This document shows, in pieces, positions 36,855 to 55,395 of a stretch of 59,016 nucleotides of DNA. The DNA comes from Myxococcota bacterium. Lineage in GTDB: Bacteria > Myxococcota_A > UBA796 > CAJQPC01. Both the position numbers and the translations under genes were made by a program. Within the stretch, counting starts at the first letter, position 1. Every line of letters begins with the position of its first letter. The stretch covers positions 1 to 59,016 of the forward strand of contig JAZAMN010000069.1 of NCBI GenBank assembly GCA_036229005.1, written 5' to 3'. The notes under the pieces are model-generated. The model ran no database searches. It worked only from the letters and a program-made list of their open reading frames with translations, and was not told the DNA's origin.

Positions 36855-37019
36855 ATGCGCTACACCGGCTCCCTCTTTCGGCCTCCCAGTGAGGCACGCA
36901 GCTACATCCTCCAAGCCACCCTCGGCTGCTCCTGGAACAACTGCACCTACTGCTTGGAATCAAATAGTTTCAGCCACTTGAGATATACCTGTACACGCTG
37001 GTTGACCAAGTGTACACGC
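36855..37019 (+). repeat. Junction J1: radical-SAM 5' fragment (33 codons), IHF-like site and paired arm-like repeats
   Basis: MRYTGSLFRPPSEARSYILQATLGCSWNNCTYC at 36855-36953; TGCACCTACTG 36942-36952; TGTACACGC at 36990 and 37011. Confidence 0.85.
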
Positions 37020-37085
37020 TGCGTCCGCAACCGGAGAAGCCCTGGTGCTGGACGCACACGCAGATGAGGGAGAGTTGGTAAGGGC

Positions 37086-38774
37086 TCAAAGGGCTCCGGG
37101 GGCCCCAAGGAACAGGTGCGCCGCCCCTGGCCCAAAGCGGTCCGGGTCTGTCTCGTAGGTTGGGTCTCCGACCAAGAGCTCCTGGCAACCGTCGCCATTG
37201 AGGTCGTCCAGGAAGGCGGCGTGTGCCGCGTACTGGTTCCAGTCCTCGAATCCAACCTGGGCGAGTAGGCCATCGGGCTCGCTCTGGATCTCGATGGTCC
37301 CAGTCCCAAGGGGCCCCAAGGCAAGGGCCAGGCCCGCGAGAGTCTCCTGCTCGACAAACGTCTGGACCAGGTCTGCGTGGCCGTCGCAGTTGATGTCGCC
37401 GAGGTGGAAAGTGCCCAGATTGTAGGCGCCGAAGTGGTCGTCCTGATTCACTACCCGGAGGCCGGGAGCGGTGAGGTCGACCTGGATGGTGTCGATCCAG
37501 ACAAATAGCTCACGTTGGGAGTCGTCTACCCGGACTTCCACAATGAGGTCGGGAAGCCCATCATTGTTGACGTCTTCGGCAAGATCAGGTCGATTGAAGG
37601 CTCGCGTGAGATCGAGGCCCTGACCGAATTCAACTTCGATGGAATCGTGGGCGACCATCACGTCTGATGCATAGCTGGTGTCCACTTCGAAGGGGCCCTG
37701 CCCGTGCCAGAGTCGCTGGGTTCGAAGGTCTGAGGGATCATGGCTTCCTACGAATATCTCGCTGACTCCGTCACCGGTCCAGTCGTCGGTAGCCGACCAA
37801 GCTGGTCTGGTGCCGTCCAGATCGATGGTTGTGAGCTGAAAGGACTCCCCATCCAGAGAGAGGTTTCGAAGCACCAGGCTGCTTCCGTATCCGACACTCG
37901 TAGGAACGGACTCGTCAAGGAGCTCCAGGTGACAGCTTCCGTCACCATACCCAAACAGCCCGTCGCCCCAGTACAGGACCTGGCTCGAGGTGGTCGACAG
38001 GTCGAACACCTCGCAAACGTCGGCCTGGAGTAGCAAGTACTGCGTTCCATCCCTCTCGAACAGAGAGACGAACACCAAGTCCGATAGCCCCGCGGACTCT
38101 TGAGAGCTGCTGACTGCCAACAGCGCCTGATCAAAGTCCGTGACAGGACGAGACAACACATCCCCCCCCGAGAAGAGGTGCACAAAGCGTTCGTCATATG
38201 TATCCCCGGCAACGGCGATGTCTGCCACACCGTCCCCATCGACATCGGGGAGAGAATACACGCCCTGTCCAGCATGGCTCTTGTTCTGCCAGTCATCGAC
38301 CCAGATCCCTTCGATACGGTGATCCGGAGTGCCGCTCGCGATGCCGCCGAAGTACTGACAATCCTCATCCACCACGCCGTCACAGTCCTCGTCCACGCCG
38401 GTGTCGCAGAGCTCAAAGAACAGAGTGGAGCGGAGGGGATCGCTGTCGTCGCAGTCCGTGTCCACAGGGTCGCCGTCCCCGTCACCATCCCGGTTATCCG
38501 CTCCATCACAGTCCTGGTCGACTCCATCCAGGGCGATGTCCGTCGCTCCTGGGTGGACGCTGGGGTCCGTGTCGTCGCAGTCCTCGGCCGTGGTCACGTA
38601 GCCGGGGGTGTCCTGGCACACCGGAACGGCTTCACCGCTGCCCCAGCCGTCGCCATCCTGGTCCGCATAAAGCGTGACCGCTGGGCAGCCGGTATCCTGA
38701 GTGTCAACTGGCCCGTCGGTGTTCGGGTCGGTGCCGTTTCGGCATGCCAGCAGAGCGAGAATGGGAAGGGTCAT
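37086..38774 (-). CDS. Lipoprotein with MopE-like and FG-GAP repeats (paralog of 34972..36741)
   Basis: LLAC lipobox; CxTGVDEDCxGVVDEDCQYFGG shared with 34972..36741. Confidence 0.8.
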   Translation of the reverse strand: MTLPILALLACRNGTDPNTDGPVDTQDTGCPAVTLYADQDGDGWGSGEAVPVCQDTPGYVTTAEDCDDTDPSVHPGATDIALDGVDQDCDGADNRDGDGDGDPVDTDCDDSDPLRSTLFFELCDTGVDEDCDGVVDEDCQYFGGIASGTPDHRIEGIWVDDWQNKSHAGQGVYSLPDVDGDGVADIAVAGDTYDERFVHLFSGGDVLSRPVTDFDQALLAVSSSQESAGLSDLVFVSLFERDGTQYLLLQADVCEVFDLSTTSSQVLYWGDGLFGYGDGSCHLELLDESVPTSVGYGSSLVLRNLSLDGESFQLTTIDLDGTRPAWSATDDWTGDGVSEIFVGSHDPSDLRTQRLWHGQGPFEVDTSYASDVMVAHDSIEVEFGQGLDLTRAFNRPDLAEDVNNDGLPDLIVEVRVDDSQRELFVWIDTIQVDLTAPGLRVVNQDDHFGAYNLGTFHLGDINCDGHADLVQTFVEQETLAGLALALGPLGTGTIEIQSEPDGLLAQVGFEDWNQYAAHAAFLDDLNGDGCQELLVGDPTYETDPDRFGPGAAHLFLGAPGAL

Positions 38775-38813
38775 GGGGAACTACAGAATGTGGCCATCTG
38801 AGGGAGGGGGCGA

Positions 38814-39377
38814 CTACTGATGGAGGAGCCCCCGTAGCTGAGCCACGGAGCGCGGAACCCCATTCCGCTCCAGGATATCCAGCACCTCGTCAAGGGACAT
38901 CGACGGGTTCTTCAGGGCCGCCGCCTGCTCCTGCACGACAAGGAGCACCGCACCGGAAGCAAGGTCGATGAGATCCAGGATGAACGCATCTGGATGAACC
39001 GCCTCAACCCCGTACGGTGCGAGCCTGCTGGCGGGGAAATCCCTGAGATTGTGCGTGACGATGGACTGGGCTCCGCACCGGATCGCGGCTGCCAGAACGT
39101 GACGGTCGTCCGGGTCAGGGAGCTCCAAATCGGCCATGAGCGGCTGGTGCCCCTGGACCATGGCATCGCGGACGGCCAAGTTCATGAGCTCCCGCGTGCG
39201 TGTCAGCTGTTCGGGCCTCAGCTCTGGGCGGTCCTTGATGATGTTCCGGAAGACCTCGTCCAGGATCTCCTCGGTCCACCGAGCACGAAAGAGCCCAGTC
39301 ATGGCGAGGCGCACAAGCAAGTCGCGAAGAGGCGCTGGATACAGCACATTCGCGTCGTAGACGACAGTGAAGGCCAC
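38814..39377 (-). CDS. PIN-domain protein (VapC-like toxin)
   Basis: VVYDANVLYP, LPDPDDRHVLAAAI, IVTHNLRDFP. Confidence 0.9.
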   Translation of the reverse strand: MAFTVVYDANVLYPAPLRDLLVRLAMTGLFRARWTEEILDEVFRNIIKDRPELRPEQLTRTRELMNLAVRDAMVQGHQPLMADLELPDPDDRHVLAAAIRCGAQSIVTHNLRDFPASRLAPYGVEAVHPDAFILDLIDLASGAVLLVVQEQAAALKNPSMSLDEVLDILERNGVPRSVAQLRGLLHQ

Positions 39378-39380
39378 CGC

Positions 39381-39827
39381 TCAGTACCCGAGCCCGAGCT
39401 CCTGGGCCTCCGCCGCCAAGGCGTCCGCCGCCTCCTTGCGACGAGCGTCGTCCAGGCTCTTGTAGGTCACCAGGTCCTGAAGCTGGACCCGTCGATGGGT
39501 GCCCACGCGCCGGAACGGGATCTGCCCCTCGTCCAGCAGCTTGATCAAGAAGGGCCGAGAGACATTCAACAGATCCGCGGCCTGTTGAGTGGTGAGCTCC
39601 GCCTTCACCGGCATGACCGTGACTGCATGCCCGTTGGCCAGGTGAGCCAGCACATTCATCAGCAGCTCAAAGGCCTCGACCGGCACCGTGGCCCGCGCAG
39701 GCTCATCGCCCTGCGCCACAACCTCGACGAGCGTGGGCCGCTGGGTCTTGAGCGCGGTCGAGAAGGCCCGGATGGCCTCGCCAGCCGCGCGCGTGGTCTC
39801 TTCGCTGGGAAGCTCGATGGCGTTCAT
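39381..39827 (-). CDS. Excisionase-family helix-turn-helix DNA-binding protein (PIN partner)
   Basis: ELTTQQAADLLNVSRPFLIKLLDEGQIPFRRVGTHRRV. Confidence 0.9.
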   Translation of the reverse strand: MNAIELPSEETTRAAGEAIRAFSTALKTQRPTLVEVVAQGDEPARATVPVEAFELLMNVLAHLANGHAVTVMPVKAELTTQQAADLLNVSRPFLIKLLDEGQIPFRRVGTHRRVQLQDLVTYKSLDDARRKEAADALAAEAQELGLGY

Positions 39828-39861
39828 GGCGACTCTCCTTGCCGAGAGCGTAGCCACCAAT

Positions 39862-39902
39862 CGGAGCAACCGCAATGACCGAAGCAACTGAAGTGTACAC
39901 GC
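39862..39902. promoter_or_regulatory. 9-bp-period direct repeats upstream of the HTH gene, running into a TGTACACGC motif
   Basis: CGGAGCAAC CGCAATGAC CGAAGCAAC TGAAGTGTA; TGTACACGC at 39894-39902. Confidence 0.5.
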
Positions 39903-39970
39903 GCGCGGGAGGTCCTGGGAGCCGCTGGGAAGGCATGGGCCGAGTTGCTTGGACGGAGTATGAACCGCGC

Positions 39971-40135
39971 ATGCGCTACGTCCCACCCCTCTTTCGGCCT
40001 CCGTCCGAAGCTTCCAGCTACATCCTCCAAGCAACACTGGGATGTTCCTGGTCCAACTGCACCCACTGCTGGGATAGGAGTAATATCAAGTGGTTGTCGC
40101 GTCGCTGTACACCCATTCCGGGGTGGTGTACACGC
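39971..40135 (+). repeat. Junction J2: radical-SAM 5' fragment, consensus IHF site and paired arm-like repeats
   Basis: MRYVPPLFRPPSEASSYILQATLGCSWSNCTHC 39971-40069; TATCAAGTGGTTG 40084-40096; TGTACACCC 40106 and TGTACACGC 40127. Confidence 0.85.
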
Positions 40136-40996
40136 TACTCGGTCGGCGGGGTCGACTGGCCCGCATGGTCGTCCCCCCAAACAGGACAGCTCACCATGCG
40201 GCGTCACGCCACAGTTATGCCAGCCGCCGGCGTCCAGGCTCTCGAAGAGCTCCCCAGACGCGGGCACCTGGCCGAAGTTGACCTGCCCCGCCGCGCCCCA
40301 GCACAGGGCCCCGCCACCCGTCACGCCACAGCTGTGGTAGCTCCCGGCAGTCACGCGGTCCCACGTGGCGTCGATGACCTCGAGCTGCCCTTCGCCGTCT
40401 TAGCCCCAGCACCGGATGGCGCCGCCGTCTTCCACGGCGCAGGCGTGCCGCTGGCCCACATCGACCTGGACGAAGGTCGCGTCCGGAGTGTCGGCGATGT
40501 CGGAGCCGGTCTCGCCCCAGCAGAGCAGGCTCCCGTCGAGGTCCACTCCGCAGGTGAACGACGCCCAACCCGTGCTGATCTGCCGGAAAGCGACATCCGG
40601 CGCATCGGTCCGAGACGACTCGCCCCAGCAGGTGACCACGCCGTCCCTGTCGAGCGCGCACGCGTGGAGCGAGCTGACCTGGACGTCGACGAAGATGCCC
40701 TCGGGGACACCGTCGATCGAGTCTCCCCAGCAGGTCAACGACCCGTCCTGCAGGACCCCGCACGCCGTGCGCGGCCCGATGGAGATGGCCTGGAACGCCT
40801 CTGCTGGCACCTCGAGCTGCCCCCGGTTGTCGTCACCCCAGCACGCTGCCGTGCCGTCCTCTCGGAGCGCGCAGCTGCCGAGGAGAGTTGACGTCACGGA
40901 CACCCAGGGTCCGGTTCTCTCAATCTCCGCGGGGCCCGAGTCGCCGGACTCCTCAGTGGGCGGGACCGTGCACGCGACGAGGGCGAAGAGAATCAC
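40135..40996 (-). pseudogene. RCC1-like repeat lipoprotein with internal stop and late frameshift
   Basis: LVAC lipobox and CA/CG..DG..CWG repeats; in-frame TAA at 40400-40402 with repeats continuing; removing one T near 40180 restores CWGDDHAGQSTPPTE*. Confidence 0.7.
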
Positions 40997-43212
40997 TCCG
41001 CCTCCGAGCGAAGCAGCCGCAGCGCGTTGAACACCACCAGCAGCGACGCGCCCATGTCGGCGGCGATGGCGCCCCACAGCGAGGCGAGCCCGGCGAACGT
41101 GAGGACGACGAAGAGAGCCTTGATGGCCAGGGCGAACACCGTGTTCTGGCGAACGATCGACAGGGTGCGGCGCGAGTGCCGGACGAGCCACGCGAGCTTC
41201 GCCAGATCGTCCGTCATCAGCGCGACGTCCGCGGTCTCGACGGCGACATCGGTGCCGATCGCGCCCATCGCGACACCGATCGCTGATCGAGCAAGCGCGG
41301 GGGCATCGTTCACGCCGTCGCCGATCATCGCCACAGGGCCGTAGGTTCGCTCCAGTTCCTCGACCGCGCTGACCTTGTCCGCCGGGAGCAGCTCGGCGCG
41401 GACGTCGTCGATGCCGACCTCGGCGGCGACCGCTGCGGCGGTCCCGCGGTTGTCGCCCGTGAGCATCGCCACGCGAGCCACGCCCGCGTCGTGCAGCGCC
41501 GCGATGGAGGCCCGCGCCTCGGGCTTGATGGTGTCCGCCAGCGACAGGGTCCCGCAGACGTGGTCGTCGGTGCCGATGGCGACGACGGTCCGTCCGCGAG
41601 CGGACTCGGCCTCCAGCAGAGCGTGCAGCTCGGGGGTCTCTTGGCCTCGCTCCTCGAGCCAGCGGTGGGAACCCAGCCAGTACGCACGGCCATCGACCAC
41701 ACCCCGGGCTCCCTTGCCGGGGACTGCCTCGACGGACGAGGCCCTCAACGACCCTCCGCCCGCGGCCCGGTCCACGACGGCCCGGGCGATGGGGTGCTCG
41801 CTGTCGGCTTCGATGGCCGCGGCGACGGCGAGCAGCCGCTCCGGCGTGTGGTCGTCGAGGGCGTGGATGTCCACCAGCTCGGGCCGGCCGAGCGTCAGCG
41901 TTCCGGTCTTGTCGACGGCCACGACCGCGAGGTGGGCGGGTATCTCGAGGAAGCGCCCACCCTTCACGAGCACACCGTTCCGCGCTGCGGCAGCGAGCCC
42001 GGAGACCACCGCGACGGGGGTTGAGATGACCAGGGCGCAGGGGCAGCCGATGACCAACAGCACCAACGCTCGGTAGAACCAGGTGCCCCAGTCCGCGCCG
42101 AAGGCCAGCGGCGGGACCACGAACACGAGCGCGGCCGCGCCGAAGACCACGGGTGTGTAGATGCGAGCGAAGCGCTCGACCCAGCGCTCGCTCTCGCTGC
42201 GGTCCTTCCTCGCCTCGCCGACCATCGCCACGATGCGTGCGAGGGTGGTGTCGGTGGCCGCAGCGGTGCTGCGTACCTCGAGCACCCCGTTCCCATTGAT
42301 GGTGCCGGCGAAGACCTCGTCGCCGGGTTCCTTGGCGGCCAGCACGCTCTCGCCGGTGATCGGAGCCTGGTCGACCTCCGAGCGCCCGGTCGCGACGAGG
42401 CCGTCGAGGCCGATGCGTTCCCCGGGACGGACGACGAAGCTCGTTCCGACCGCGACCTCGGAAGGTGGCACTTCGCGGGTGGCGTCGCCCTCCTTGACGC
42501 GGACGGTGTCCGGCGCCAGCGACAGCAGGCGCTCGACGGCCTTGCGCGCCCGGCCGACGCTCCAGCTCTCGAGCGCGAGCGAGACCGCGAACAGGAACGC
42601 GACCGTGCCCGCCTCGAACCACTCGCCGATTGCGATGGCCCCGGTCACCGCCAGGGTCATCAGCAGGTTCATGTCGGGCCGGAGCGACCGCAGCGAGAAC
42701 CACGCCTTGGGAAGGACGGGCCAGAGGCCGGCCGCGACGCCCATGCCGTAGGCGACGAGGGCGGGTACAGGCACGGCGTGCTCGGCGCCGCCCATGCCCT
42801 CGTGGCCGATGGCCGCCTCGAGCCCACCCAGGACCGCGTGCAGACCGAACCCGGCCGCGACGCCCATCCCGCTCACCGTCGCGAGGATGCTGGTCCGATT
42901 GCGCTCCCAAACGGACGGGTCGGGCTCGGGGGAGTCGCCTTGCACACGGACGGCGCGCATGCCCGTCCTCCCCACCGCGGAGATCACCGCCTCCATGTCG
43001 ACATTCTCCGGCACCTCCATCACCCCGGACAGGGTGTCGAAGACCAGGGCGTCGGGGTCGACGAGGTCCTTCAGCACCCGCTTGAGCGTCCCGACCTCCT
43101 CGGCGCAGTCCATGCCGTGGACCTTGAGCGCCACCCCAGCTCCTCGGGCGACGGGGTTGGACGCCACCTGCTCCTCGCCACCGCAGCAGTGGTCGTGCTC
43201 ATTATCAGACAT
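40993..43212 (-). CDS. Heavy-metal translocating P1B-type ATPase (CadA/ZntA-like)
   Basis: GMDCAEE, ITGES, IGCPCALVISTP, DKTGTLT, GDGVNDAPAL. Confidence 0.95.
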   Translation of the reverse strand: MSDNEHDHCCGGEEQVASNPVARGAGVALKVHGMDCAEEVGTLKRVLKDLVDPDALVFDTLSGVMEVPENVDMEAVISAVGRTGMRAVRVQGDSPEPDPSVWERNRTSILATVSGMGVAAGFGLHAVLGGLEAAIGHEGMGGAEHAVPVPALVAYGMGVAAGLWPVLPKAWFSLRSLRPDMNLLMTLAVTGAIAIGEWFEAGTVAFLFAVSLALESWSVGRARKAVERLLSLAPDTVRVKEGDATREVPPSEVAVGTSFVVRPGERIGLDGLVATGRSEVDQAPITGESVLAAKEPGDEVFAGTINGNGVLEVRSTAAATDTTLARIVAMVGEARKDRSESERWVERFARIYTPVVFGAAALVFVVPPLAFGADWGTWFYRALVLLVIGCPCALVISTPVAVVSGLAAAARNGVLVKGGRFLEIPAHLAVVAVDKTGTLTLGRPELVDIHALDDHTPERLLAVAAAIEADSEHPIARAVVDRAAGGGSLRASSVEAVPGKGARGVVDGRAYWLGSHRWLEERGQETPELHALLEAESARGRTVVAIGTDDHVCGTLSLADTIKPEARASIAALHDAGVARVAMLTGDNRGTAAAVAAEVGIDDVRAELLPADKVSAVEELERTYGPVAMIGDGVNDAPALARSAIGVAMGAIGTDVAVETADVALMTDDLAKLAWLVRHSRRTLSIVRQNTVFALAIKALFVVLTFAGLASLWGAIAADMGASLLVVFNALRLLRSEAE

Positions 43213-43510
43213 CGTCGGCCTCCTCGGTCGCGTGTTGGACGGCGTCCTCGACGATGCAGCCGACGTGCTCGTCGTGGAGTCGATACACCACGGACCGCCC
43301 CTCGCGGTCGCCTACGACCAGGCGTGCGTTCCGCAGGTGCCGTAGGTGGTGCGAGAGCGCCGACTGCTCGACATCCAGCTCGGCCATCAGGGCCTTGACC
43401 TTGGCGGGGCCCTCTCGATGGAGGCGAAGGAGGACGGCCAGTCGAACCGGGTGGGCCATGCAGCTCAGCAGGTCCACTGCCCGCTCGAGGTCGACGGGGC
43501 GCGTGGTCAC
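43205..43510 (-). CDS. ArsR/SmtB-family metal-sensing repressor
   Basis: AHPVRLAVL, EQSALSHHLRHLR, REGRSVVYRLHDEHV. Confidence 0.9.
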   Translation of the reverse strand: MTTRPVDLERAVDLLSCMAHPVRLAVLLRLHREGPAKVKALMAELDVEQSALSHHLRHLRNARLVVGDREGRSVVYRLHDEHVGCIVEDAVQHATEEADDV

Positions 43511-44184
43511 GGGCGCCTCCCGGTCAACAGGAAGCCGCTGCCCTCCATGTAGGTCTCCTCTTCGACGTCCGCGAGGAGCTCCCGGAGCAGCGCCTTGCCC
43601 TCGGTCCAGCGAGCGCGAAGCCGTTCGTCGTCAAGGTCCTCGGCCGAGTCGACTCCGGAGGCCTCGAGCACCTTGTGCAACAGGGGATTGAGCAGCTTGC
43701 GCACGCCTCGCTTGGGCCGGGTGCTGTGGAAGTCGAGCAGCACCAGCCGCCCGCCGGGTCGGAGGACCGCGACCGCTCGGCGAAGCGCCGCAGGCAGGTC
43801 TTCGACGATGCCCATCGCCCAGGTGCTCACCACGGCGTCGAACGCCCCCTCCACGCCCAACTCGGCAGCGTCCCCTTGGACCAGGCGGACGTTGGTCCAT
43901 CCTGCCTCGGCCACCCGGGTTTGCGCCTTGGTCAGCATGCCGGTGGAGTAGTCGAGGCCGACCACCTCGCCCCGAGGGCCCACGGCGTCGATGAGCAGGG
44001 GCAGGTTTAGGCCGGTGCCGCAGCCGATGTCCAGGACCCGGTCGCCTGGGGACAGCTCCAGCCGGGACACCGTGGTGACGCGGAGCTCTGCGATGCCGGC
44101 GATGGGCTGGCTGAGCCAGCGGTCCCAGAAGTCGTAGGTCCGCGCCAGACGGTCGTAGTTTCGTTGGACGTCATCGAGCTTCAT
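43507..44184 (-). CDS. Class I SAM-dependent methyltransferase
   Basis: VLDIGCGTG, GLDYSTGML, LRPGGRLVLLD. Confidence 0.88.
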   Translation of the reverse strand: MKLDDVQRNYDRLARTYDFWDRWLSQPIAGIAELRVTTVSRLELSPGDRVLDIGCGTGLNLPLLIDAVGPRGEVVGLDYSTGMLTKAQTRVAEAGWTNVRLVQGDAAELGVEGAFDAVVSTWAMGIVEDLPAALRRAVAVLRPGGRLVLLDFHSTRPKRGVRKLLNPLLHKVLEASGVDSAEDLDDERLRARWTEGKALLRELLADVEEETYMEGSGFLLTGRRP

Positions 44185-44798
44185 GCCTTCTCCGCGGAGA
44201 TGAACCCGATGGGCAGGAGCCCCGGGATGAGTTGGCGCTCCCGCAGCCGCAGGTCGTCGCGCTGAACCGCGGCGGCGAGTCCGTCCAGAGAGAGCCGCCG
44301 TTGGCCGGGGAAGCCAGTGAGACCCGAGAGCCACGACAGGACACGGGTCCGAGCGCTGTGGTCGTGCAGGTAGGTCGGGATGATGAGCTTCCCGCCTGGC
44401 CTCAGCACGCCCACGAGCTTGTCGATCCCTGCGTCGAGGTCGGGGAGGAGGTGCAGCACGTTCGCCGCGACGACGGCGTCGAAGCGAGGAGGGCCCTCGA
44501 GTGTGTACAGGTCGAGTTGTCGGGTCTCGACGTTGTCCAGCTCGCCGACCGCGGCGCGGAGCTGCTTGACCATCGCCTCGGCGTAGTCGGTGGCGACGAG
44601 TCGCCCCACGACGGGAGCGATGGCGCGACTGACCAGCCCCGTTCCTGCGGCGAGCTCGAGGACGCAATCGGCGCCCTCGACCTCATCGGCGACCCGCTGC
44701 ACCATCTCGGGCATCGGGCCACCGAACAGCAGCATGAACCCGCCGTAGCGGGAAGCAGAGCGCTCCCAGTAGGACCGCGCTTCCTCAACAGCTGTCAC
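44181..44798 (-). CDS. Class I SAM-dependent methyltransferase
   Basis: [35 protein letters not shown] before GTG 44798. Confidence 0.88.
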   Translation of the reverse strand: MTAVEEARSYWERSASRYGGFMLLFGGPMPEMVQRVADEVEGADCVLELAAGTGLVSRAIAPVVGRLVATDYAEAMVKQLRAAVGELDNVETRQLDLYTLEGPPRFDAVVAANVLHLLPDLDAGIDKLVGVLRPGGKLIIPTYLHDHSARTRVLSWLSGLTGFPGQRRLSLDGLAAAVQRDDLRLRERQLIPGLLPIGFISAEKA

Positions 44799-44817
44799 CG
44801 GTACCTCCGTTGCTAAC

Positions 44818-44853
44818 ACATGATAGCATCATCATATGATGATGTCATCATGT
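44818..44853. promoter_or_regulatory. Long AT-rich palindrome, probable ArsR/SmtB operator
   Basis: ACATGATAGCATCATCAT|ATGATGATGTCATCATGT with a perfect 18-bp core (44827-44844) upstream of the MTase-MTase-arsR-ATPase run. Confidence 0.7.
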
Positions 44854-47800
44854 TTGTGTCAGCATCTCCTCGTTCCGCATCCAGCGGGCGTAGAGCGCGG
44901 GGAGCACCAGCAACGTGAGCAGCGTGCTGGTCACCAATCCGCCGATGACCACCGTCGCCAGCGGCCGCTGGACCTCGGCGCCCGCGCTGGTGGCCATCGC
45001 CATGGGCACGAAGCCGAGCGCAGCGACCAGGGCCGTCATCAGCACCGGTCGGAGGCGTCGTTCCGCACCCTGACGAGCGGCCTCCAGCGCCGAAACGCCG
45101 GGGACGTGCAGGTCGCGGATGCAGGTCACCAGGACCACGCCGTTCATGACCGCGATGCCGAAGAGCGCGATGAAGCCCACCGCCGCCGAGATCGACAGCG
45201 GGAGGCCGCGGGCGAAGAGCGCGACCAGCCCGCCGGTGACCGCCATGGGCACGTTGGCGTAGACCAGCAGCGTGACCCGCGCCGAGCGGAAGTTCGCCTG
45301 CAGCAGAACGAAGATGAGCAGCAGCACCAGCGGCACGAGGACGGCCAGGCGGGCGCTGGCCGCCTGCAGGTTCTCGAAAGACCCGCCCCAGTCCATGACG
45401 ATGCCCGAGGGCACGTCCACGTCCTGCTCGAGCCGCTCCTGGGCCTCGGCGACGAAGCCCGCGACGTCCCGCCCGCGCACGTTCATCTCGATGGTGAGCC
45501 GTCGCTGCGCGTTCTCGCGACCGATCTGGAGCGGGCCCTCGTCCGTGCTCACCGTGGCGACCTGGCCCAGGGGGACCATCGGCCCTCCCGGGCTGCCGAC
45601 CAGGATGGCCTCGATGGCGTCGGGGTCCTGTCGAACCTCCTCCGGGAAGCGGACCTGCAGGCGGAAGCGTCGCTGACCCACGAGCACGTCTCCGGACTCA
45701 CGACCGCCGAGCGCCTCCACGGCGTCGAGCACGTCGCGGGCGTCCATGCCCAGCCGCGAGATGGCCTGCCGGTCGACGTCGACCTGCAGCATCGGCAGGC
45801 CCGCGATCTTCTCGGCCTTGACGTCCTGGGCGCCCTCGATGGAACCCAGCGTGGCCACCATCTGGTCACCGACCCGCTTCAACTCGTCCAGGTCCTCGCC
45901 ATACAGGAAGAGCGCCACGTCCGAGCGCACGCCTTCGATCAGCTCGTTCACCCGCAGCTCGATGGGCTGGGAGAAGGCGAAGTTGACGCCGGGAACCCGG
46001 CTTCGGAGCTCGGCCTCCATCTCCTCGACGAGGCCCGCCTGGTCCTGGGCACGCGTCCACTCATCCTGCGGGTGGAGCATCACGTAGACGTCCGAGAAGT
46101 CCACGCCCATCGGGTCCGTCGCGATCTCGGCCCTTCCCGTCCGGGAGATGACGGTCGTCGCCTCGTCGGGGAAGGCCTCCAGGATCGCGCGCTCGACCTC
46201 GCCGGCCTGGAGAATGGACTCCTCCAGCGACACCGAGGGCGGACGGATGATCTGCAGCGCGATGGAGCCCTCGTCGAGCTTCGGCACGAAGACCGCGCCC
46301 AGCAGCGGGGCGAGGCCCAGGCTGGCCGCGAAGACGACGGCAGCGGTCACTCCGACGCGGTGCGGGTGACGCAGCGCCATGTCCAGCGCGGGCCGGTATA
46401 CGCGATGAGCCAGCCGGACGAGCCAGGTGTCCTTCTCCTCGGCCTGCTTCAGGAACACAGAGGCCAGCACCGGCATCGCCGTCAGGGCCAGGACCAGCGA
46501 GCCCGCCAGCGCGAAGACCACGGTCAACGCCATCGGGCGGAACATCTTCCCCTCGATGCCCGTCAGCGCCAGGATCGGCAGGTAGACGAGCATGATGATG
46601 CCGACCGCGAACGTCACCGGCCGAGCCACCTCGCGGCTGGCCTCGAGGATGGTGCCGTCGTCGACGGTTTCACCTTTGCGTCTTCGCTCCCCGACGACCC
46701 GGACGATGTTCTCGATCATGACGACAGAGCCGTCGACGATGAGCCCGAAGTCGATGGCGCCCAGGCTCATCAGGTTGCCGGAGAGCCCCGCCAGCAGCAT
46801 GCCGATGAAGGCGCACAACATCGACAAGGGGATGGCTACGGCCACGATGAGGCCGCCGCGCACGTTGCCGAGCATCAAGAGCAGCACGGCGATGACGAGC
46901 AGCCCGCCCTCGAGCAGGTTGGTCTCGACCGTGCGGATGGTCCGTTCGACCAGGTCCGTCCGGTTGTAGAAGACGTCGACCTCGACCCCCTCCGGGAGCG
47001 AAGGCTCGATCTCCGTCAGCGAGTCCGCGAGGTCCTCGGAGACGACGCGGGCGTTCTCGCCGAAGCCCATCATGGCGATGCCGATGACGGCTTCGCCGCG
47101 CCCGTCGCGGGTCACCGCACCCTGCCGGATGAGCGGAGCGAAGCGCACCTCGCCCAGGGCCTCGACCGTGATGGGCGTGCCCTCTTCGGTCGTCGCGACG
47201 ACGACGTCCTCGACGTCCTCCAGGCTGCCGAGCAGTGCGGTGCCGCGAACGAGCATCTGCTCCCGACCGCGCTCGAGGTAGCCGCCACCGACGGTGAGGT
47301 TGTTGTGCTCCAGCGCCTCGAAGACGTCCGCGAGGACCAGCCCGTGAGCGGCCAGGCGCGAGGGCCGGACCTCGACCTGGTAGGTGCGGAGCTCGCCGCC
47401 GAAGGCGTTGATCTCGACCACGCCCGGGACCGAGCGCAGCTGGGGCGCGATCTGCCATTCCAGGACGTCGCGCAGGTCCATCAGGCTGTGGTCGGCGCCG
47501 GGGGCGTTGCGCACCTCGAACTGGAAGACCTCTCCCAGGCCGGTGGACGGAGGCCCGATTTCGGGTTCGCCGTAGCCCTCGGGGATGGACTCACGTGCGG
47601 TGCCGAGCCGCTCGGAGACCACCTGGCGAGCCCACCACAGGTCGGTGCCCTCCTCGAAGACCACCGTCACGACGGACAGGCCGAAGCGAGACAACGAGCG
47701 CACCTCCTCGGTGCGGGGAAGGCCGGCCATCGAGGTCTCGACGGGCCAGGTCACGAAGCGCTCGACCTCGAGCGGAGACAACCCGGGCGAGTCGGTGAGG

Positions 47801-47985
47801 ATCTGCACCTGGACGTTCGTGACATCGGGTACGGCGTCGATCGGCAGCTGCTGGGCGGAGCGGAAGCCCAGGGCGGCGACGAGGAAGACGCCGATGAGCA
47901 CCAGCGCCTTGTTGCGCAGGGAGGCAGCGATGATCTTGTCGAGCAGGCTAGGCCCGCGAGGCGAGAGCAGGTCGTCAGTGCGCAT
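44848..47985 (-). CDS. czcA: Heavy-metal efflux RND permease, CzcA/CusA family
   Basis: LPIDAVPDVTNVQVQI, NLMSLGAIDFGLIVDGSVV, GAEVQRPLATVVIGG. Confidence 0.93.
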   Translation of the reverse strand: MRTDDLLSPRGPSLLDKIIAASLRNKALVLIGVFLVAALGFRSAQQLPIDAVPDVTNVQVQILTDSPGLSPLEVERFVTWPVETSMAGLPRTEEVRSLSRFGLSVVTVVFEEGTDLWWARQVVSERLGTARESIPEGYGEPEIGPPSTGLGEVFQFEVRNAPGADHSLMDLRDVLEWQIAPQLRSVPGVVEINAFGGELRTYQVEVRPSRLAAHGLVLADVFEALEHNNLTVGGGYLERGREQMLVRGTALLGSLEDVEDVVVATTEEGTPITVEALGEVRFAPLIRQGAVTRDGRGEAVIGIAMMGFGENARVVSEDLADSLTEIEPSLPEGVEVDVFYNRTDLVERTIRTVETNLLEGGLLVIAVLLLMLGNVRGGLIVAVAIPLSMLCAFIGMLLAGLSGNLMSLGAIDFGLIVDGSVVMIENIVRVVGERRRKGETVDDGTILEASREVARPVTFAVGIIMLVYLPILALTGIEGKMFRPMALTVVFALAGSLVLALTAMPVLASVFLKQAEEKDTWLVRLAHRVYRPALDMALRHPHRVGVTAAVVFAASLGLAPLLGAVFVPKLDEGSIALQIIRPPSVSLEESILQAGEVERAILEAFPDEATTVISRTGRAEIATDPMGVDFSDVYVMLHPQDEWTRAQDQAGLVEEMEAELRSRVPGVNFAFSQPIELRVNELIEGVRSDVALFLYGEDLDELKRVGDQMVATLGSIEGAQDVKAEKIAGLPMLQVDVDRQAISRLGMDARDVLDAVEALGGRESGDVLVGQRRFRLQVRFPEEVRQDPDAIEAILVGSPGGPMVPLGQVATVSTDEGPLQIGRENAQRRLTIEMNVRGRDVAGFVAEAQERLEQDVDVPSGIVMDWGGSFENLQAASARLAVLVPLVLLLIFVLLQANFRSARVTLLVYANVPMAVTGGLVALFARGLPLSISAAVGFIALFGIAVMNGVVLVTCIRDLHVPGVSALEAARQGAERRLRPVLMTALVAALGFVPMAMATSAGAEVQRPLATVVIGGLVTSTLLTLLVLPALYARWMRNEEMLTQT

Positions 47986-49144
47986 GGCCCTCTCCCAGCT
48001 CGCCCTTCTCGAGTTCGCTCTTCAGGGTGAAGGCGCCCTCGGTGACGACGCGCTCGCCCGCCTCGATCCCATCCACCACCAACGCGTGGGTCGCGGTGTT
48101 TCGGGCAACGTGGACCTCGCGGGCCTCGTACCGACCGGGCTCCTCTTCGACGAAGACCACCGCCTCGCCGTCGAGCGTCACGACGGCCTCGACCGGGAGG
48201 ACGACGCCCTCGTCGCCCTGACCGCTCAGCTCGACCACGGCCTGGGCGAACATGTTCGGCTTGAGCGCGTGGTCGGCGTTGTCGACGACGACGCGCACCT
48301 CGACGGTGCGGGCGTCGGGTTCGACCCAGTCGCCGACCTGGTCGACAGTCCCCTCAAAGGCGCGGTCCGGCCAGGCGTCCACGGTGAAGCGGACGGACTG
48401 TCCCTCGGCGACGGCGGCCAGTTGCCGCTCGTACACATCGAGCAGGAGCCAGACCTGGTCCAGATCGCCAATGTGGAAGAGCGCCTGCCCCGGCTCGACA
48501 CGCTGCCCGACCCGGACATCGGTGAAGAGCACCTTGCCTGCCAGCGGGCTGCGGACGGGGATGCGCGAGGGGAAGTGTTCGCCGGCGTGGGGGTCGCCGA
48601 TAGTGGGGTCCACCCCCAAGATGCTCAGTCGTTCCTCGGCGGCCTCCAGTGCGCCGATGGCCTCGGCGTGCTCTGCTTCGGCGTCGAGCACCTGAGAGAT
48701 GGAGGCCACGCCGTCCTCCTCGAGACGCCTCAAGCGCTCCAAGCGGGCGTCCGCTGCGTCGTCCGCCGCCTTTGCCGCTCGGAAGGCGGCGATGGCTTCG
48801 CCGAGCTCGGGGCTCTGGACCGTGCCGAGTCTCTGCCCTCGGGTCACCGAGTCGCCGGGGCGCACCAGGATTGCGTCGACCTGGCCGGGGATCCAGGCGC
48901 TGACCTGGGCCTCTCTACGGGGGTCCAGGGCGATTCGCCCCGGAAGGGAGAGCTCACCCGCGAGCGTCGAGACCGAGGCCTCTGCGATCACCAGGCGAGC
49001 GGCGGCGACCGCCTCGTCGCTGAGCTCGAACACTCGCTCGTCTCCGTGGTCGTCCCCGTGTTCGTCAGCGTGTTCGCCGTGCCCATCGTGGTCGCCGTGG
49101 TCGTCTCCGCCCAAAGCGCAGGCCAATAGGAGAAAGAGCGTCAT
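47975..49144 (-). CDS. czcB: Heavy-metal RND adaptor (CzcB-like), His-rich N-terminus
   Basis: DHGDHDGHGEH tract, VRSPLAG, LKPNMFA, C-terminal GEGHAH. Confidence 0.88.
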   Translation of the reverse strand: MTLFLLLACALGGDDHGDHDGHGEHADEHGDDHGDERVFELSDEAVAAARLVIAEASVSTLAGELSLPGRIALDPRREAQVSAWIPGQVDAILVRPGDSVTRGQRLGTVQSPELGEAIAAFRAAKAADDAADARLERLRRLEEDGVASISQVLDAEAEHAEAIGALEAAEERLSILGVDPTIGDPHAGEHFPSRIPVRSPLAGKVLFTDVRVGQRVEPGQALFHIGDLDQVWLLLDVYERQLAAVAEGQSVRFTVDAWPDRAFEGTVDQVGDWVEPDARTVEVRVVVDNADHALKPNMFAQAVVELSGQGDEGVVLPVEAVVTLDGEAVVFVEEEPGRYEAREVHVARNTATHALVVDGIEAGERVVTEGAFTLKSELEKGELGEGHAH

Positions 49145-50349
49145 CGGGCACCTCCGAGAAGGACCGGGTCTTCGGTCGCCAGCAGCAGGTCCAGACGAGC
49201 GGTCGCGACGTGCCCTTCCAGTTGAACGACCGCGGTCTCGCCGTCGAGAATCTGGGCCTGCAGTAGGACTGTCGAGGTCAGATCGATCTCGCCAGCGAGG
49301 TAGCCAGCCTCCACGCTGGCCAGAGCGGCACGAGCGGCCGCCATCGGGTATTCGCCGACCGCCAGGAGCGCAGACGTCGCGAGTTCGTCGCGCCGGGTGG
49401 CGGTCGTGACCTCCATTGTCGCGACCGCCTGCGTCTCCACGAGGCGAGACTCGGCGACCTGCAGGTCGCCGAGCGCTCCGGCTCGACCTGCCTGGTTGCG
49501 ATCGCGGACTGGCAGCTCCACGGTCAGGGAGGGCCCGACCAGGGTGGCGCCGTCCTGGCTCTCTGCGACCACGCCGACCAACAACGGGGACACCGCGGCG
49601 GCCCGCTGAGCAGCGATCTCGCGCTCGGCTGCCAACAGCGCGGACTGTGCTGCGAGCACGTCACTGCGCTCTCCCGCGTGGGAGGGAGTCGGCGCAATCA
49701 GGGCGAGGTCCAACAGCAGGCTCCGCGACTCGACGGGCCGGGTGACGATCGCGGCAAGGGCGACCAGCGCGTCGGCCTCGCCCTCAAGGGCGTCGAGCAG
49801 ACGGGCGGCGGCCTGGGCCTGGGCCAGCCGAGCGAGGTTGAGGTCCAGGGTGGACGCCTCGCCCTCCTCATGCAGACGAACCACCGCGGCGTGGAGCCGA
49901 GTCGCCAGAGCAAGGCCCTCGTCGGCGACCTGGGACACACGCGTCGCGACCACGGCCTCGGTGTACGCAGTGCGCACCCCGTGCGCGACCTCGAAGCGCG
50001 TGCGATGCAGCATCGCCTCGGCCTCGTCGACACGGGCGGATGCGGCGTGGCGTGCGTGGACACCGGCGCCGGTCGGGGACACGGGCTGGCTGAGTTGGAG
50101 CTCGGCCGGCCCGTCCATCAGAAGCGAGCCGGAGAGCGAGGGGTTGGCGCCGAGGGCCTGGGCCAGCTCGCCCTCGGCGAGCAGCAGGGCCGCTTCGGCG
50201 GCGAGGACATCGGGGTTGGAGGAGAGGGCGGACGCGACGGCGTCATCGGGGACGAGGGGCACGACCGGTTCCCCGGGCTCGGCCCAGGAAGGGGCGGAGA
50301 CCAGGAAGACCAGTACGAGCCCCCAGCCCAAGCGGGTTGGGGAGAGCAT
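49141..50349 (-). CDS. czcC: TolC-family outer-membrane protein (CzcC-like)
   Basis: Signal peptide, ALSSNPDV, LPVRDRNQ; position before czcBA. Confidence 0.78.
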   Translation of the reverse strand: MLSPTRLGWGLVLVFLVSAPSWAEPGEPVVPLVPDDAVASALSSNPDVLAAEAALLLAEGELAQALGANPSLSGSLLMDGPAELQLSQPVSPTGAGVHARHAASARVDEAEAMLHRTRFEVAHGVRTAYTEAVVATRVSQVADEGLALATRLHAAVVRLHEEGEASTLDLNLARLAQAQAAARLLDALEGEADALVALAAIVTRPVESRSLLLDLALIAPTPSHAGERSDVLAAQSALLAAEREIAAQRAAAVSPLLVGVVAESQDGATLVGPSLTVELPVRDRNQAGRAGALGDLQVAESRLVETQAVATMEVTTATRRDELATSALLAVGEYPMAAARAALASVEAGYLAGEIDLTSTVLLQAQILDGETAVVQLEGHVATARLDLLLATEDPVLLGGAR

Positions 50350-50420
50350 TTGAGCGACTCACGACAGGAGGGGCCGAGGCGCGCACGTGTGCGCCTCAGC
50401 GAGGAGCTGCGATGTCGTGG

Positions 50421-50777
50421 TCAGGCGACGGGAGGGCGTGTCGGCGGCGGGATGGCCAAGCTGGTCGGGTCGCCCTGCTCGAAGCTTGACTGGGTCTCGT
50501 CAAACAACAGCCCAATTGGGGGTTCAGGGACCTCCAGCTCATTCAGCAAGGCCTGCATGGAGACATGGCAAGCACACAGGTGCTGCATCGGCGTGCAGCC
50601 GTGCTCGTCCGTGTCGGCGTGCTCGTCCTCAGCGGCCTCGTCGTGTTGCGCGCTGTGGGCGAGGTGGCCATCATGGAGCAAGTGCTCGACGTTCTCCAGC
50701 AGCTCGGTCCACCCGGGGAGGATGGATACACCAACAAGGACCACCAGTAGGCGGCAATTCAGCAGGCGCCGGATCAC
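50421..50777 (-). CDS. Small His/Cys-rich exported protein (CzcI-like position)
   Basis: GGAGG RBS, hydrophobic N-terminus, HDGHLAH..EHGC..HLCACH, C-terminal PPTRPP. Confidence 0.55.
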   Translation of the reverse strand: MIRRLLNCRLLVVLVGVSILPGWTELLENVEHLLHDGHLAHSAQHDEAAEDEHADTDEHGCTPMQHLCACHVSMQALLNELEVPEPPIGLLFDETQSSFEQGDPTSLAIPPPTRPPVA

Positions 50778-50837
50778 GCCTCCAAGATAGCCCCTCGGTT
50801 CGTTTCTTGCTCGAAAAAACGGAGTTACGCTACCCCC

Positions 50838-51002
50838 TTGCGCTACGTCCCGCCACTGTTTCGACCGCCTTCGGAAGCGAGGTCGCTGATCCTTCAATCG
50901 ACCCTTGGCTGTAGCTGGAATCGCTGCACCTACTGACGTAATATCAGTAATTCCAGACTCTTGTGACATCGATGTACACGCACATCGACATTTTGTACAC
51001 GC
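50838..51002 (+). repeat. Junction J3: radical-SAM 5' fragment (TTG start, TGA at last Cys codon) and paired arm-like repeats
   Basis: Manual translation (M)RYVPPLFRPPSEARSLILQSTLGCSWNRCTY* 50838-50936; TGTACACGC at 50973 and 50994; absent from the ORF track. Confidence 0.85.
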
Positions 51003-51005
51003 AGC

Positions 51006-53171
51006 ATGAGGGCGAAACCGCCCACCGAGGAGGTCCTCGTGCGACCTGAGCAGCTCTTCGCCCACCTCAAGGGCATTGGAAGCACGGGCCGCTTCGTCGC
51101 CGCGGGCCACCATGGCGAAGCGCCGCTCATCCAGATCCGAGGCATGGGCACGCTTCCGCTTCCCGTCGTCCCCCTCTTGCTGCCCACCCTCCGTGGGGCA
51201 GGTCGGCCCGCTCCATACGGTCGCGGTCCCGAGACGGTTGTGGACGAAGCCGTGCGCCGCTGCCACCAGCTGGAAGCGGATGAGGTCACCGTTCCCCCGG
51301 ACTTCGCCCCCGTTCTCGCCGAGATCGCGCAAGCAGCCGCGGACCAACTGGGCGTCGTTGGCTCAGTCCAGGCCAACCTCTACAAGCTCCTGGTCTATGG
51401 GCCCGGCGACTTCTTCATCCCGCACAGGGACACCGAGAAGGAGCCAGGGATGTTCGGCACGCTGGTCGTCACCCTGCCGGCCGAGTTCACTGGCGGTGGC
51501 TTGGTGGTTCGGCATGGCGGTGCCTGTGAGCGAGTCGATCTCCAGCCGGGTACCTCTGGCGTGCGGTGGGTCGCCTTCTACGCCGACTGCACCCACGAGG
51601 TCCTTCCCCTCGTCGATGGGGTCCGGGTCGCGTTGGTCTACAACCTCGTCCGCGCCGGGGCTCCGACACACCCCGCAGATGACGGTGCCGTCGTCGACGC
51701 GCTCGCCACAGAGCTCGGGACGTGGACCTCAGAGGGTCCGGTGAAGCTCGCGTGGGCGCTCGAGCATCGCTACTCCGAGGCGGAGCTTGGATGGGACGGG
51801 CTCAAAGGGGCGGACAACGGCCAAGCGCACGCCCTCCGCCGCGCAGCTCAGATAGCAGGGGTCGACGTCCACCTGGCGCTGCTTTCGGTCGACATGGAGT
51901 GGTCTGCTGAGGAGCTCCAGTACCGCTCCCGACGCCGGCGAGGCCGCTGGGGTAGAGGGGACCAATCGATCCATGGGGACGATGTCCCGGATGACATTGC
52001 GCTCTTTGATGCGCTTCGCGACGACCGGCTCCTCGGGTGCTTCATCGCAGCCGACGGAAGCACCAGGGAGCTCACCGGCATCCCCGTCAGAGAGGGCGAG
52101 GTCTGGCCGCAAGGGGTGATCGACGACGAGCCTCCAGACCACGTGAGCTACCACGAAGCCACCGGCAACGAGGGGGCCACGCTGACACAGCTGTACCGCC
52201 GCGCCGTGGTGGTGCTCTGGCCGCGCGGGAGCGAAGACGCACTGCTGATTCAGTGCGGGCTGGAGGCGGTTGCTTCGGCCCTGTCGGGGGTCAGAGATGC
52301 CGCCCGAGTGGAGCGCTTGGTGAGAGCCGTCCTGGACGACATCGCCTACGGCAACCGGGAGGCCGTCCGGCAGCTGCTGGAGGCCCTGGCTGAACACCGC
52401 ATGGCCGCTCTCGGCGTCGAGGTGTTGGAGCGGCGTTCTCGCCTGGACCGCAGCTTGGTGCCTCCGCTCGCCATGCTGCTGGAGAGCCTGGACGAAACGT
52501 CGGCTGCCACTGCAGCGGCCCAGCAGATGGCCCGACTCGGCCCCTGGGACGGAGAGGTCGCGGTCGACCTGCTGGCGGTCGCAGCCCGGCGAGCCACCCT
52601 CCCCTCACTCTGGACCGGACTCGCGGAGACCTTCGCTGCGCGGAGGCCTTGCCACTCGGAGACTGCCGACTCCATGGCCGTGGTCGTGGACGCGGCCTGG
52701 ACTCTGGATCTGGATGTCCTGAAACAGACAGCTCGTAGCCGACTCGGGGACGACGCCCGCTTCGACGACGCTGTAGCCGCTGCCCTGTTGCTGGAGGAGC
52801 AGGGTTGCCTACCCGAGGACTGGCGAGAGGGAGTGGTCACGGACCTCCGCCGAAGGGTGGCCACCCCACCAACCAAGCCAACAGACTTCGTCCGAGACCC
52901 TGTCCAACACTGCGACTGCGAGGACTGTCGAGCCCTGTCGTCCTTCCTCCGCGATCCTTCCGAGGACCGGTGGGTGTATGGCGTGCGCGAGGACCGGCGA
53001 CGTCACCTCAAGGGTGTCGCGAAACGCGAGCGCTTGGACATCACAACCCGTGTTCTGAAGTCCGGCAGGCCCCACAAGCTCGTGTGCACGAAGACCACAG
53101 GCCGGTATGAGCGCGCTGTGGACCGCTTCGCGCGGCATGTGAACGCGCTCGCCCTGCTCGAAGACCCATAA
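51006..53171 (+). CDS. 2OG-Fe(II) oxygenase-domain protein with long helical C-terminus
   Basis: LYKLLVYGPGDFFIPHRDTEK (HxD), CTHEVLP..GVRVALVYNL. Confidence 0.85.
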   Translation: MRAKPPTEEVLVRPEQLFAHLKGIGSTGRFVAAGHHGEAPLIQIRGMGTLPLPVVPLLLPTLRGAGRPAPYGRGPETVVDEAVRRCHQLEADEVTVPPDFAPVLAEIAQAAADQLGVVGSVQANLYKLLVYGPGDFFIPHRDTEKEPGMFGTLVVTLPAEFTGGGLVVRHGGACERVDLQPGTSGVRWVAFYADCTHEVLPLVDGVRVALVYNLVRAGAPTHPADDGAVVDALATELGTWTSEGPVKLAWALEHRYSEAELGWDGLKGADNGQAHALRRAAQIAGVDVHLALLSVDMEWSAEELQYRSRRRRGRWGRGDQSIHGDDVPDDIALFDALRDDRLLGCFIAADGSTRELTGIPVREGEVWPQGVIDDEPPDHVSYHEATGNEGATLTQLYRRAVVVLWPRGSEDALLIQCGLEAVASALSGVRDAARVERLVRAVLDDIAYGNREAVRQLLEALAEHRMAALGVEVLERRSRLDRSLVPPLAMLLESLDETSAATAAAQQMARLGPWDGEVAVDLLAVAARRATLPSLWTGLAETFAARRPCHSETADSMAVVVDAAWTLDLDVLKQTARSRLGDDARFDDAVAAALLLEEQGCLPEDWREGVVTDLRRRVATPPTKPTDFVRDPVQHCDCEDCRALSSFLRDPSEDRWVYGVREDRRRHLKGVAKRERLDITTRVLKSGRPHKLVCTKTTGRYERAVDRFARHVNALALLEDP

Positions 53172-53242
53172 CCCCTGCAGAAAACTCCCCCCTTGGTTGA
53201 CCTTGCTGCTCTACTCTGGCGATCAAGCCCCACGGAGTGACC

Positions 53243-53270
53243 TTGACATCAACCAATGAGCGAGTAAGCT
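53243..53270 (+). promoter_or_regulatory. Sigma70-type promoter for the abiE operon (probably leaderless)
   Basis: TTGACA, 16 bp, TAAGCT, then 7 bp to ATG 53278; no RBS. Confidence 0.55.
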
Positions 53271-53277
53271 CCAACAC

Positions 53278-55013: not shown

Positions 55014-55205
55014 ACGCCGCAGGCACAGACCCCGAATGGGCAAAGAAAGTGTACACGCAGATGGCTGCTCGGCCAAGCACACACCGAACTACCCAATCAG
55101 CATAGTCGCCTTCCCACCAATGATATCTACCCAGCAAACCACTCCGCAACCCAGAGTCAATCGGGAGACCATGGGCCAGAATCCCCGCAGAGTTTAGGAG
55201 CCCCC

Positions 55206-55370: not shown

Positions 55371-55395
55371 TACGTCAGCAACCGAAGAGGTCCTG

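Follow-up and report, generated by a model that had tools for sequence, protein, structure and literature searches.

The DNA analysed here, referred to as the window, is a whole contig (C69) of 59,016 nucleotides from the genome of a Myxococcota bacterium (G000). It hosts four junctions, J1 to J4, that bound a series of units, E1 to E4, with varied cargo (Table 1). Each junction opens with a fragment of a radical SAM gene, 31 codons counted from its start, that breaks off at the CxxxCxxC motif and closes with CTGCACC, which we refer to as the core. The block to the left of the core is coding sequence in all four, the 5′ end of the radical SAM gene. To the right an IHF-like 13-mer begins at +20 from CTGCACC, and the motif TGTACACGC or a variant of it begins at +42 and again at +63. 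The four 5′ fragments are mutually only 62–89% identical, and the J3 fragment carries a TTG start, Asn-Arg ahead of Cys-Thr and a TGA after the Tyr codon.

Table 1. Junctions, arm sites, units and cargo genes of the array in the window.
Feature	Position	Strand	Description
J1 5′ fragment	36855..36947	+	31 codons, ending in candidate overlap CTGCACC 36941-36947; 91% aa identity to N-terminus of intact C20 gene
J1 right arm	36948..37019	+	Core-side YACTGMTGGRA-type block; IHF-like 36968-36980; arms 36990 and 37011
Unit E1	36948..40063		3116 bp, GC 0.62; no recombinase
E1 FG-GAP/MopE-repeat gene	37086..38774	-	
E1 PIN gene	38814..39377	-	
E1 HTH_17 gene	39381..39827	-	
Left-arm site of J2	39894..39902	+	-163 from core; at -161/-162 in G011 and L070
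J2	39971..40135	+	5′ fragment; CTGCACC 40057-40063; perfect IHF consensus 40084-40096; arms 40106 and 40127
Unit E2	40064..50930		10867 bp, GC 0.70; no recombinase; no arm site left of J3
E2 genes		-	RCC1-repeat, P-type ATPase, ArsR, two methyltransferases, AcrB/HlyD/OEP efflux set
J3	50838..51002	+	5′ fragment; CTGCACC 50924-50930; IHF-like 50951-50963; arms 50973 and 50994
Unit E3	50931..55298		4368 bp, GC 0.66
E3 2OG-Fe(II) oxygenase gene	51006..53171	+	
E3 AbiEi gene	53278..54111	+	
E3 AbiEii gene	54102..55013	+	
Left-arm site of J4	55050..55058	+	-242 from core; -239 in L068
J4	55206..55370	+	5′ fragment; CTGCACC 55292-55298; IHF-like 55319-55331; degenerate arm 55341, arm 55362
Unit E4 (start)	55299..59016		Cut by contig end
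E4 small ORF	55396..55695	+	
E4 578-aa ORF			Without family; next to the defence gene, the two within 55755-59014
E4 defence gene	57269..59014	-	C-terminal (nitrilase) part of RT-nitrilase-like defence gene; PADLOC E 8e-23

An earlier note, made from the letters of the window alone, had described this arrangement as base-exact: after (T/C)ACTG come 37 bp, a 9-bp motif, 12 bp and a second motif, giving a 21-bp period. This is true to the base at all four junctions. The second motif (arm 2) is exact in four of four, and the first (arm 1) lies where the note had placed it, with one mismatch at J2 and a degenerate form at J4 (CACACACAC, 5/9). The quoted 13-mers are also in place, and they match the IHF consensus, WATCAANNNNTTR, at 7, 9, 6 and 7 of 9 positions from J1 to J4. 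The spacers do differ, as the note had remarked, with pairwise identities of 41–62% in the 37-mer and 17–67% in the 12-mer against 100% in arm 2. The note did not mention that the sequence ahead of the core codes for protein. The weakly inverted flanks that it saw around CTGCACC are not supported: on average 3.9 of 11 positions are complementary, which ranks 11th among 51 choices of centre and length. These flanks do no better than other centres.

The note had also named an observation that would count against its reading, namely that pairs of the arm motif are common genome-wide away from the junctions. Single sites are frequent, with 1321 matches to TGTACACGC at no more than one mismatch in the 6.4-Mb genome. 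Pairs spaced by 21 bp are found only at J1, J2 and J3 where 0.14 would be expected, therefore the pairing is not due to chance. Three other pairs in the genome have spacings of 24–27. A lone TGTACACGC followed by an AT-rich IHF-like stretch occurs away from the array at L090:5166 (G000:C31:182163), and is possibly the end of another element. In nine junctions the right-side arms lie at +42/+63, and arm 2 agrees with its consensus at 79 of 81 bases while the spacers drift. Spacing variants are G018 (+40/+59) and G001 and G003, which have three arms. Left of the core, arm sites are found at -161 to -163, at -239/-242, at -207 and at -153. Averaged over the four window junctions the IHF score is 7.25/9, and over nine ungapped junctions 6.78/9; for both sets it was reached in 0 of 3000 shuffles, allowing the best common offset and both strands. 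IhfA is over its cut-off in this genome, and an IhfB-like gene is under its own. We treat the IHF sites as candidates that match the consensus, and binding of the arms by an integrase is likewise presumed from their sequence.

Lambda-type integrases use a 7-bp overlap plus arm sites, and the earlier note proposed CTGCACC as the crossover. CTGCACC is the sole block common to the five junctions of the genome (the fifth is described below). The length may be 6 or 7 bp, and the core dyad is unsupported. J3 departs from the others at -1 and -2 of the core, with an Asn-Arg that intact genes also show as natural variation, and J2 does so at +1. Junctions in relatives depart from the intact gene directly after CTGCACC. 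Whereas 28 of 28 intact-gene matches have a Tyr codon after Thr, the junctions have CAC (J2, L074), GTG (G001), TTG (G018), GAC (G036), GAT (G014) or TAG (G021) in this position. One G015 junction reads TTGCACC, therefore the overlap may be 6 or 7 bp; the G003 junction reads CTGTACT. Later mutation set aside, natural variation would bracket the overlap to the 6–7 bp of (C)TGCACC. Going by this comparison of junctions, the putative cleavage site would lie in the same letters.

The units themselves resemble small islands with att features at both ends. E1 and E3 have arm sites on both sides, and E2 has a core and fragment, without a left-arm site at J3. An arm site was also searched for to the left of J1, as it was for J3, and none was found. 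Among the ORFs of E1–E3 that were scanned there is no recombination or conjugation family, and neither PF00239 nor a resolvase was found in the genome. As a directionality factor there is one candidate, the E1 gene matching HTH_17/TIGR01764, although its pairing with the PIN gene is that of an antitoxin. This excisionase-family gene is intact beside the left arm at three loci (window 39381-39827; L068:991-1437; L070:5674-6264), and at two of the three no intact PIN partner was seen. The plain reading of HTH_17 is that of an antitoxin, and a directionality factor is a lead. An ARAGORN tRNA-Ser at 48271-48339 was set aside as probably false, lying inside the HlyD gene on the opposite strand. Two further repeats in the window are unrelated to the array, a 300-nt repeat whose copies at 195-494 and 726-1025 are spaced by 531 and share 91% identity, and a coding stretch at 18535-19478 with three tandem repeats of 363 bp.

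By eye, there is no obvious Shine–Dalgarno sequence ahead of the fragments at 36840-36857, 39955-39973 and 55190-55208, and several left arms carry a TA-nnn-like hexamer 6–8 bp ahead of the start codon. The radical SAM mRNA may be leaderless. We considered J1 as the native host end (attL) of the array; this was not established, and the 65 bp upstream of J1 resemble the left arms of the other units. No further junction was found upstream of J1, and comparison at the DNA level gave no synteny with relatives. The stretch at 33100-36850 has a GC content of 0.64 vs 0.71 and carries FG-GAP/MopE genes, one of them 35% identical to the E1 gene and in inverted orientation. This stretch may be an older unit with an eroded left junction.

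The contig ends within E4 and is not joined in the assembly to contig C20, where a fifth copy of the 5′ block runs on as an intact radical SAM gene of 301 aa. The reverse transcriptase part of the E4 defence gene, which could have linked C69 to another contig, is not in the assembly. We infer that E4 continues into C20, i.e. that the array adjoins the intact gene. The tyrosine integrase that the earlier note had predicted as “unseen” is present in the same genome, at G000:C20:37781-39112 (PF00589). It is a protein of 444 aa, encoded divergently from the intact gene, and one of six PF00589 matches in the genome; none of these is on C69. Between the start of the integrase and the radical SAM gene lies an inverted pair of TGTACACGC, one site 207 bp (+) and the other 153 bp (-) to the left of the core. 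The locus is organised likewise in G001, with an integrase that is 65% identical and again an inverted TGTACACGC pair.

All 12 homologs of this integrase that were compared keep the catalytic residues R261, K287, H348, R351, H374 and Y383. The top fold match of its structural model (pLDDT 78, pTM 0.41) is lambda Int (E 6e-9; structures 1z1b and 1z1g), residues 4–398 aligning on lambda Int 8–356 with a Z of 16.6, an rmsd of 15.7 and an identity of 16–18%. Residues 9–67 are predicted to form a beta-sheet plus a helix, and residues 5–72 resemble the arm-binding domains of Tn916, lambda and others (Atlas: PF02920, PF14657, PF09003; 0.94–0.95). Pfam shows no arm-binding family in any of the 12 homologs, and a single-sequence model of the N-terminal 70 residues, with a pLDDT of 66, gave no fold match, which is uninformative either way. 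On the strength of the model the integrase is predicted to be of the lambda (arm-binding) type with an N-terminal arm-type domain. In an NCBIfam scan the protein (P0001) gave only a weak, sub-cut-off match to a XerA-like model and, judged by its integrase, the system is not an integron.

Upstream of the integrase lies a complete-looking defence cluster for 7-deazaguanine DNA modification (Dpd; L002 and L003, G000:C20:181-27108) with queC, a queE-like gene, folE2 and dpdA, B, C, E, F, G, H and J. There is also a BnzB match at C20:34920-36254. A scan of C20 ORFs, which was not exhaustive, contained no relaxase. In the public run X7 a 66-kb contig holds a junction, a unit of about 49 kb that contains the integrase, and the intact gene. 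In run X2 the intact gene has a depth of 1069, with eight loose letters of J1/J4 type ahead of it, and the integrase stretch is nearly uncovered. This hole was not counted as evidence, as a gap in contigs proves nothing.

We searched for the layout in other genomes and in metagenomes. The strict composite pattern is found in 4 of the 154 genomes of the order, all in this family and always at a radical SAM fragment, and a reversed-pattern control gave 0 matches in the 154. The layout thus recurs in three other genomes of the family, and also in the metagenome contigs L068, L070, L071 and L074. Of 13 genome and 9 metagenome pattern matches, the 9 and 4 without a radical SAM fragment were dropped as chance; 4 and 1, respectively, were contigs already known, which we counted once. 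The start of the gene is matched in 40 of 61 related genomes, several more than once, and at the level of the phylum, with a stricter cut-off, in 72 of 251 (five of them more than once). Viral contigs gave 0 matches to the junction pattern and only four distant integrases (26–34%), therefore we see no sign that the units are phages.

Six further junction-bounded units were found, of 6.6 kb (G001), 7.7 kb (G015), 5.9 kb (G018), 8.9 kb (G011), 3.0 kb (L070) and 1.3 kb (L074, with a degenerate left junction). No PF00589 match occurs on their contigs, where four of five genomes were searched, and a non-exhaustive scan of their 43 called ORFs showed no recombinase family. No close ortholog of the integrase was found in the junction-bearing G011, G015 and G018, which are drafts of 95–100% completeness, and none of 152 candidate integrase relatives in metagenome contigs was confirmed. 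Unit halves are shuffled between genomes: the PIN/HTH end of E1, the efflux set of E2 and the oxygenase and AbiE genes of E3 are found recombined in G001, G011, L068, L070 and L071. Strains differ too. A 9417-nt contig of run X2 follows E2 through J3 to 50936, continues with 50 other letters and is J4-like from 55355, so that E3 (4.4 kb) is skipped in exact register. Further right arms with the same IHF-like block are found in runs X2, X7 and X15.

Relatives of the integrase are informative about the motif. In the class, 15 integrase matches come from 11 of 182 genomes, and among them are seven distinct loci, each in a different genome, where the integrase directly follows msrA. Six of the seven have an inverted pair of a related motif before the integrase start (GTAGACAC, GTGGGCAC or GTGGACAC, GTGCAC types); no such pair was seen in G046. 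The motif thus changes along with the clade of the integrase, which is the behaviour expected of an arm site. At these loci (L106, L108-L112, L114) the 3′ end of msrA encodes a two-cysteine motif. The genome studied here has a truncated integrase remnant at msrA, an N-terminal domain and then a stop (L089:3909-4620; G000:C30:71900-72620), still preceded by an inverted motif pair. The radical SAM gene itself hosts a second family of junctions, at L036:1070 (G015:C37), L041:3852 (G051), L043:5006 (G052) and L048:4646 (G032), in which identity to the intact gene runs 10 bp longer, through Tyr-Cys-x, and TGTACACGC arms are absent. This suggests that another recombinase uses a site just downstream in the same gene.

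Taken together, we think it likely that J1–J4 are hybrid att sites, left by repeated integration at one site in the radical SAM CxxxCxxC codons by a tyrosine integrase of predicted lambda type. One arm of an incoming circle would bring a new promoter region together with 31 codons of the gene start, and its other arm would bring the IHF-like site and two arm sites. By crossover in (C)TGCACC the circle would rebuild the radical SAM gene and shift the previous 5′ end outward, therefore the array would grow next to the gene. Recombination between neighbours would shuffle the halves of units, and toxin–antitoxin pairs would slow their loss. The units that lack an integrase would most likely be CIME-like, their own integrase lost or never needed, and they would move with a neighbour or by an integrase in trans. 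CIMEs, as characterized in the relevant part of PMC5704250, are elements that have lost their integration and transfer genes, keep their att sites and accrete in tandem. Continued use and decay of the units are probably both at work. The integrase-less units that directly adjoin the intact gene in G011 and L070 favour continued use.

A different reading of the same units, which we hold to be possible but unlikely, is that they are maintained, minimal integrase-free cassettes whose lambda-type arms still work, which would spread independently among strains and genera and be inserted and removed singly by an integrase in trans at double-stranded sites that depend on IHF and the arms. A number of observations fit it. 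An integrase-free type of left arm, whose only arm site falls at -161 to -163, occurs with 75–82% identity at J2 of the window, in G011, which belongs to another genus, and in L070, with different cargo in each, and longer versions of this one-site arm occur at J4 and L068. Integrase-less units lie directly at the intact gene, as noted above for G011 and L070, arm 2 is kept across nine junctions despite drifting spacers, and strains differ in having or lacking E3, in exact register. However, homologous exchange in the 93-bp repeats could also give differences in exact register. The arms are not uniformly maintained either: J1, J3, the upstream junction of G011 and L071 (where the junction is truncated) have a left arm site that is degenerate or gone, and arm 1 of J4 is degenerate. 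The left arms with one arm site contrast with the inverted pair in the integrase-bearing arm, spacing differs in G018, G001 and G003, and the search for a close integrase ortholog in G011, G015 and G018 gave none. Furthermore, CIMEs of 1.2–13 kb and recombination between tandem elements are already described. In its full form this reading would have a marine bacterial family keep an integron-like array, in which attP-like multi-gene cassettes of 1–11 kb are swapped singly at the iron-sulfur motif of the radical SAM gene by one trans-acting integrase, and we give it only a modest chance. Were it right, a cassette would comprise a replacement gene start, one left arm, an IHF site, two right arms and often a toxin–antitoxin pair, and each insertion would also replace the promoter region and N-terminus of the enzyme.

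Alternatively, TGTACACGC might be the operator of a cargo regulator, e.g. an HTH_17 antitoxin, and the fragments might have been multiplied by homologous recombination, with no integrase involved. In E1 the left-arm site does precede the HTH_17 start by 66 bp, and the left arm has an HTH_17 or AbiE gene beside it in E1, E3, G011, L068 and L070. We nevertheless regard this as very improbable. On the right side too the distance of the motif from the core is fixed, although there is no regulator gene after it, the motif forms an inverted pair at the integrase start, altered in the sister integrases at msrA, and all fragments end at the same codons. That a 100-bp repeat misled assembly or binning and the array is an artefact, as might be feared in a draft of 74 contigs when the gene start lies at contig ends in several relatives, can practically be dismissed, given the low identity among the four fragments, the recurrence of the layout in other genomes, and single public-run contigs that span J1 (X2 36924-38843), J2 (X1 39891-40773; X2 39955-43242) and J3 (X1 49938-51396) and differ at 0–6 positions, where X1 may be the source sample.

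Integration by a lambda-type integrase at the radical SAM gene, our preferred reading, has some practical consequences. Nine to fourteen diverged junctions amount to a natural footprint of the candidate overlap, IHF site and arms of a clade of integrases that is still uncharacterised. With the matching enzyme available, an attP x attB assay can be built directly. The CxxxCxxC codons of the radical SAM gene would be an integration hotspot at which the 5′ end of the gene is replaced, and to which two families of elements apparently resort. Software that expects every island to have an integrase would overlook such units or fuse them. If it is true that the integrase-free units move singly in trans, the array would amount to an integron-like system with the chemistry of the lambda type. 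If they are not individually mobile, this is an unusually long and well-preserved stack of the CIME type.

Tandem arrays with integrase-less members are already documented; the radical SAM CxxxCxxC target is apparently unreported. Our literature search found no tyrosine-integrase islands at this motif, although the target may be listed in the TIGER/Islander database, and the portions available to us of PMC12884075, PMC13739063, PMC5812530 and bioRxiv 10.64898/2026.01.13.699239 hold nothing on this site. The principle that a split target is restored by an island-borne fragment is that of Islander, whose account, in the sections concerned, gives 4 tandems with at least three members in a set of 3919 islands, where only integrase-bearing members entered the count (PMC4383910).

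The closest likeness is with the ICE/IME/CIME arrays of streptococci, in which units free of recombination genes, with att sites and cargo, sit at a coding target and neighbours recombine, so far as the relevant parts of PMC5704250 and PMC7563491 describe them. In S. salivarius, according to the corresponding part of PMC7563491, CIMEs are 1.2–13 kb long and lie in arrays of two or three elements, the most decayed farthest from the target. The array studied here has five junctions and no fewer than four units. In the streptococcal arrays, to go by these same accounts, it is as a rule the unit with the integrase that lies closest to the target. An integrase-bearing unit adjoins the target here as well (C20; the ~49-kb unit in run X7), but in G011 and L070 an integrase-less unit is nearest. 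The target also differs from that of the streptococcal CIME arrays as portrayed there, being the 5′ part of a radical SAM gene whose start the element replaces, and no relaxase or conjugation gene was seen that would point to an ICE or IME parent.

Other islands share single features with the array. Dehalococcoides has multiple tandem islands at one gene, ssrA, and the pertinent part of PMC3146451 reports 15 of them without an integration module. As set out there, these involve a serine recombinase, a tmRNA target and 20-bp repeats, as opposed to a tyrosine integrase, arm and IHF-like sites and a protein gene. The E. coli H47 island (13 kb) has long imperfect direct repeats and no integrase of its own, and is mobilised in trans, in the description that PMC3191183 gives of it. 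That description concerns one island, in which exchange maps to four segments and the recombinase is not identified, whereas we find units in tandem, one candidate overlap and a candidate cognate integrase. Radical SAM genes have been hit before: PMC12924846, in the passages on the subject, has the Streptomyces phages Samy, PhiJoe, PhiOZJ and PhiWTR integrating inside such genes. Samy and PhiJoe are discussed there as using serine integrases, with the target of Samy inactivated, in contrast to the tyrosine integrase and rebuilt frame proposed here.

The likeness to integrons lies in small cargo units, several with toxin–antitoxin pairs, beside one tyrosine recombinase. The differences are that the integrase is not IntI-like by NCBIfam and has a predicted arm-like N-terminal domain, that the sites consist of a gene fragment plus arms where integrons have attC hairpins, and that the units are multi-gene and lie in either orientation. 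With lambda Int and its att sites the system shares a three-domain model, a candidate 7-bp overlap, an IHF-like site between the core and direct-repeat arms, and arms on both sides. It departs from lambda in having no clear inverted core sites, no identified Xis and only one IHF-like site found. The best reading of the array remains that integrative elements accreted in tandem at lambda-type att sites, with members among them that are CIME-like and have no integrase.
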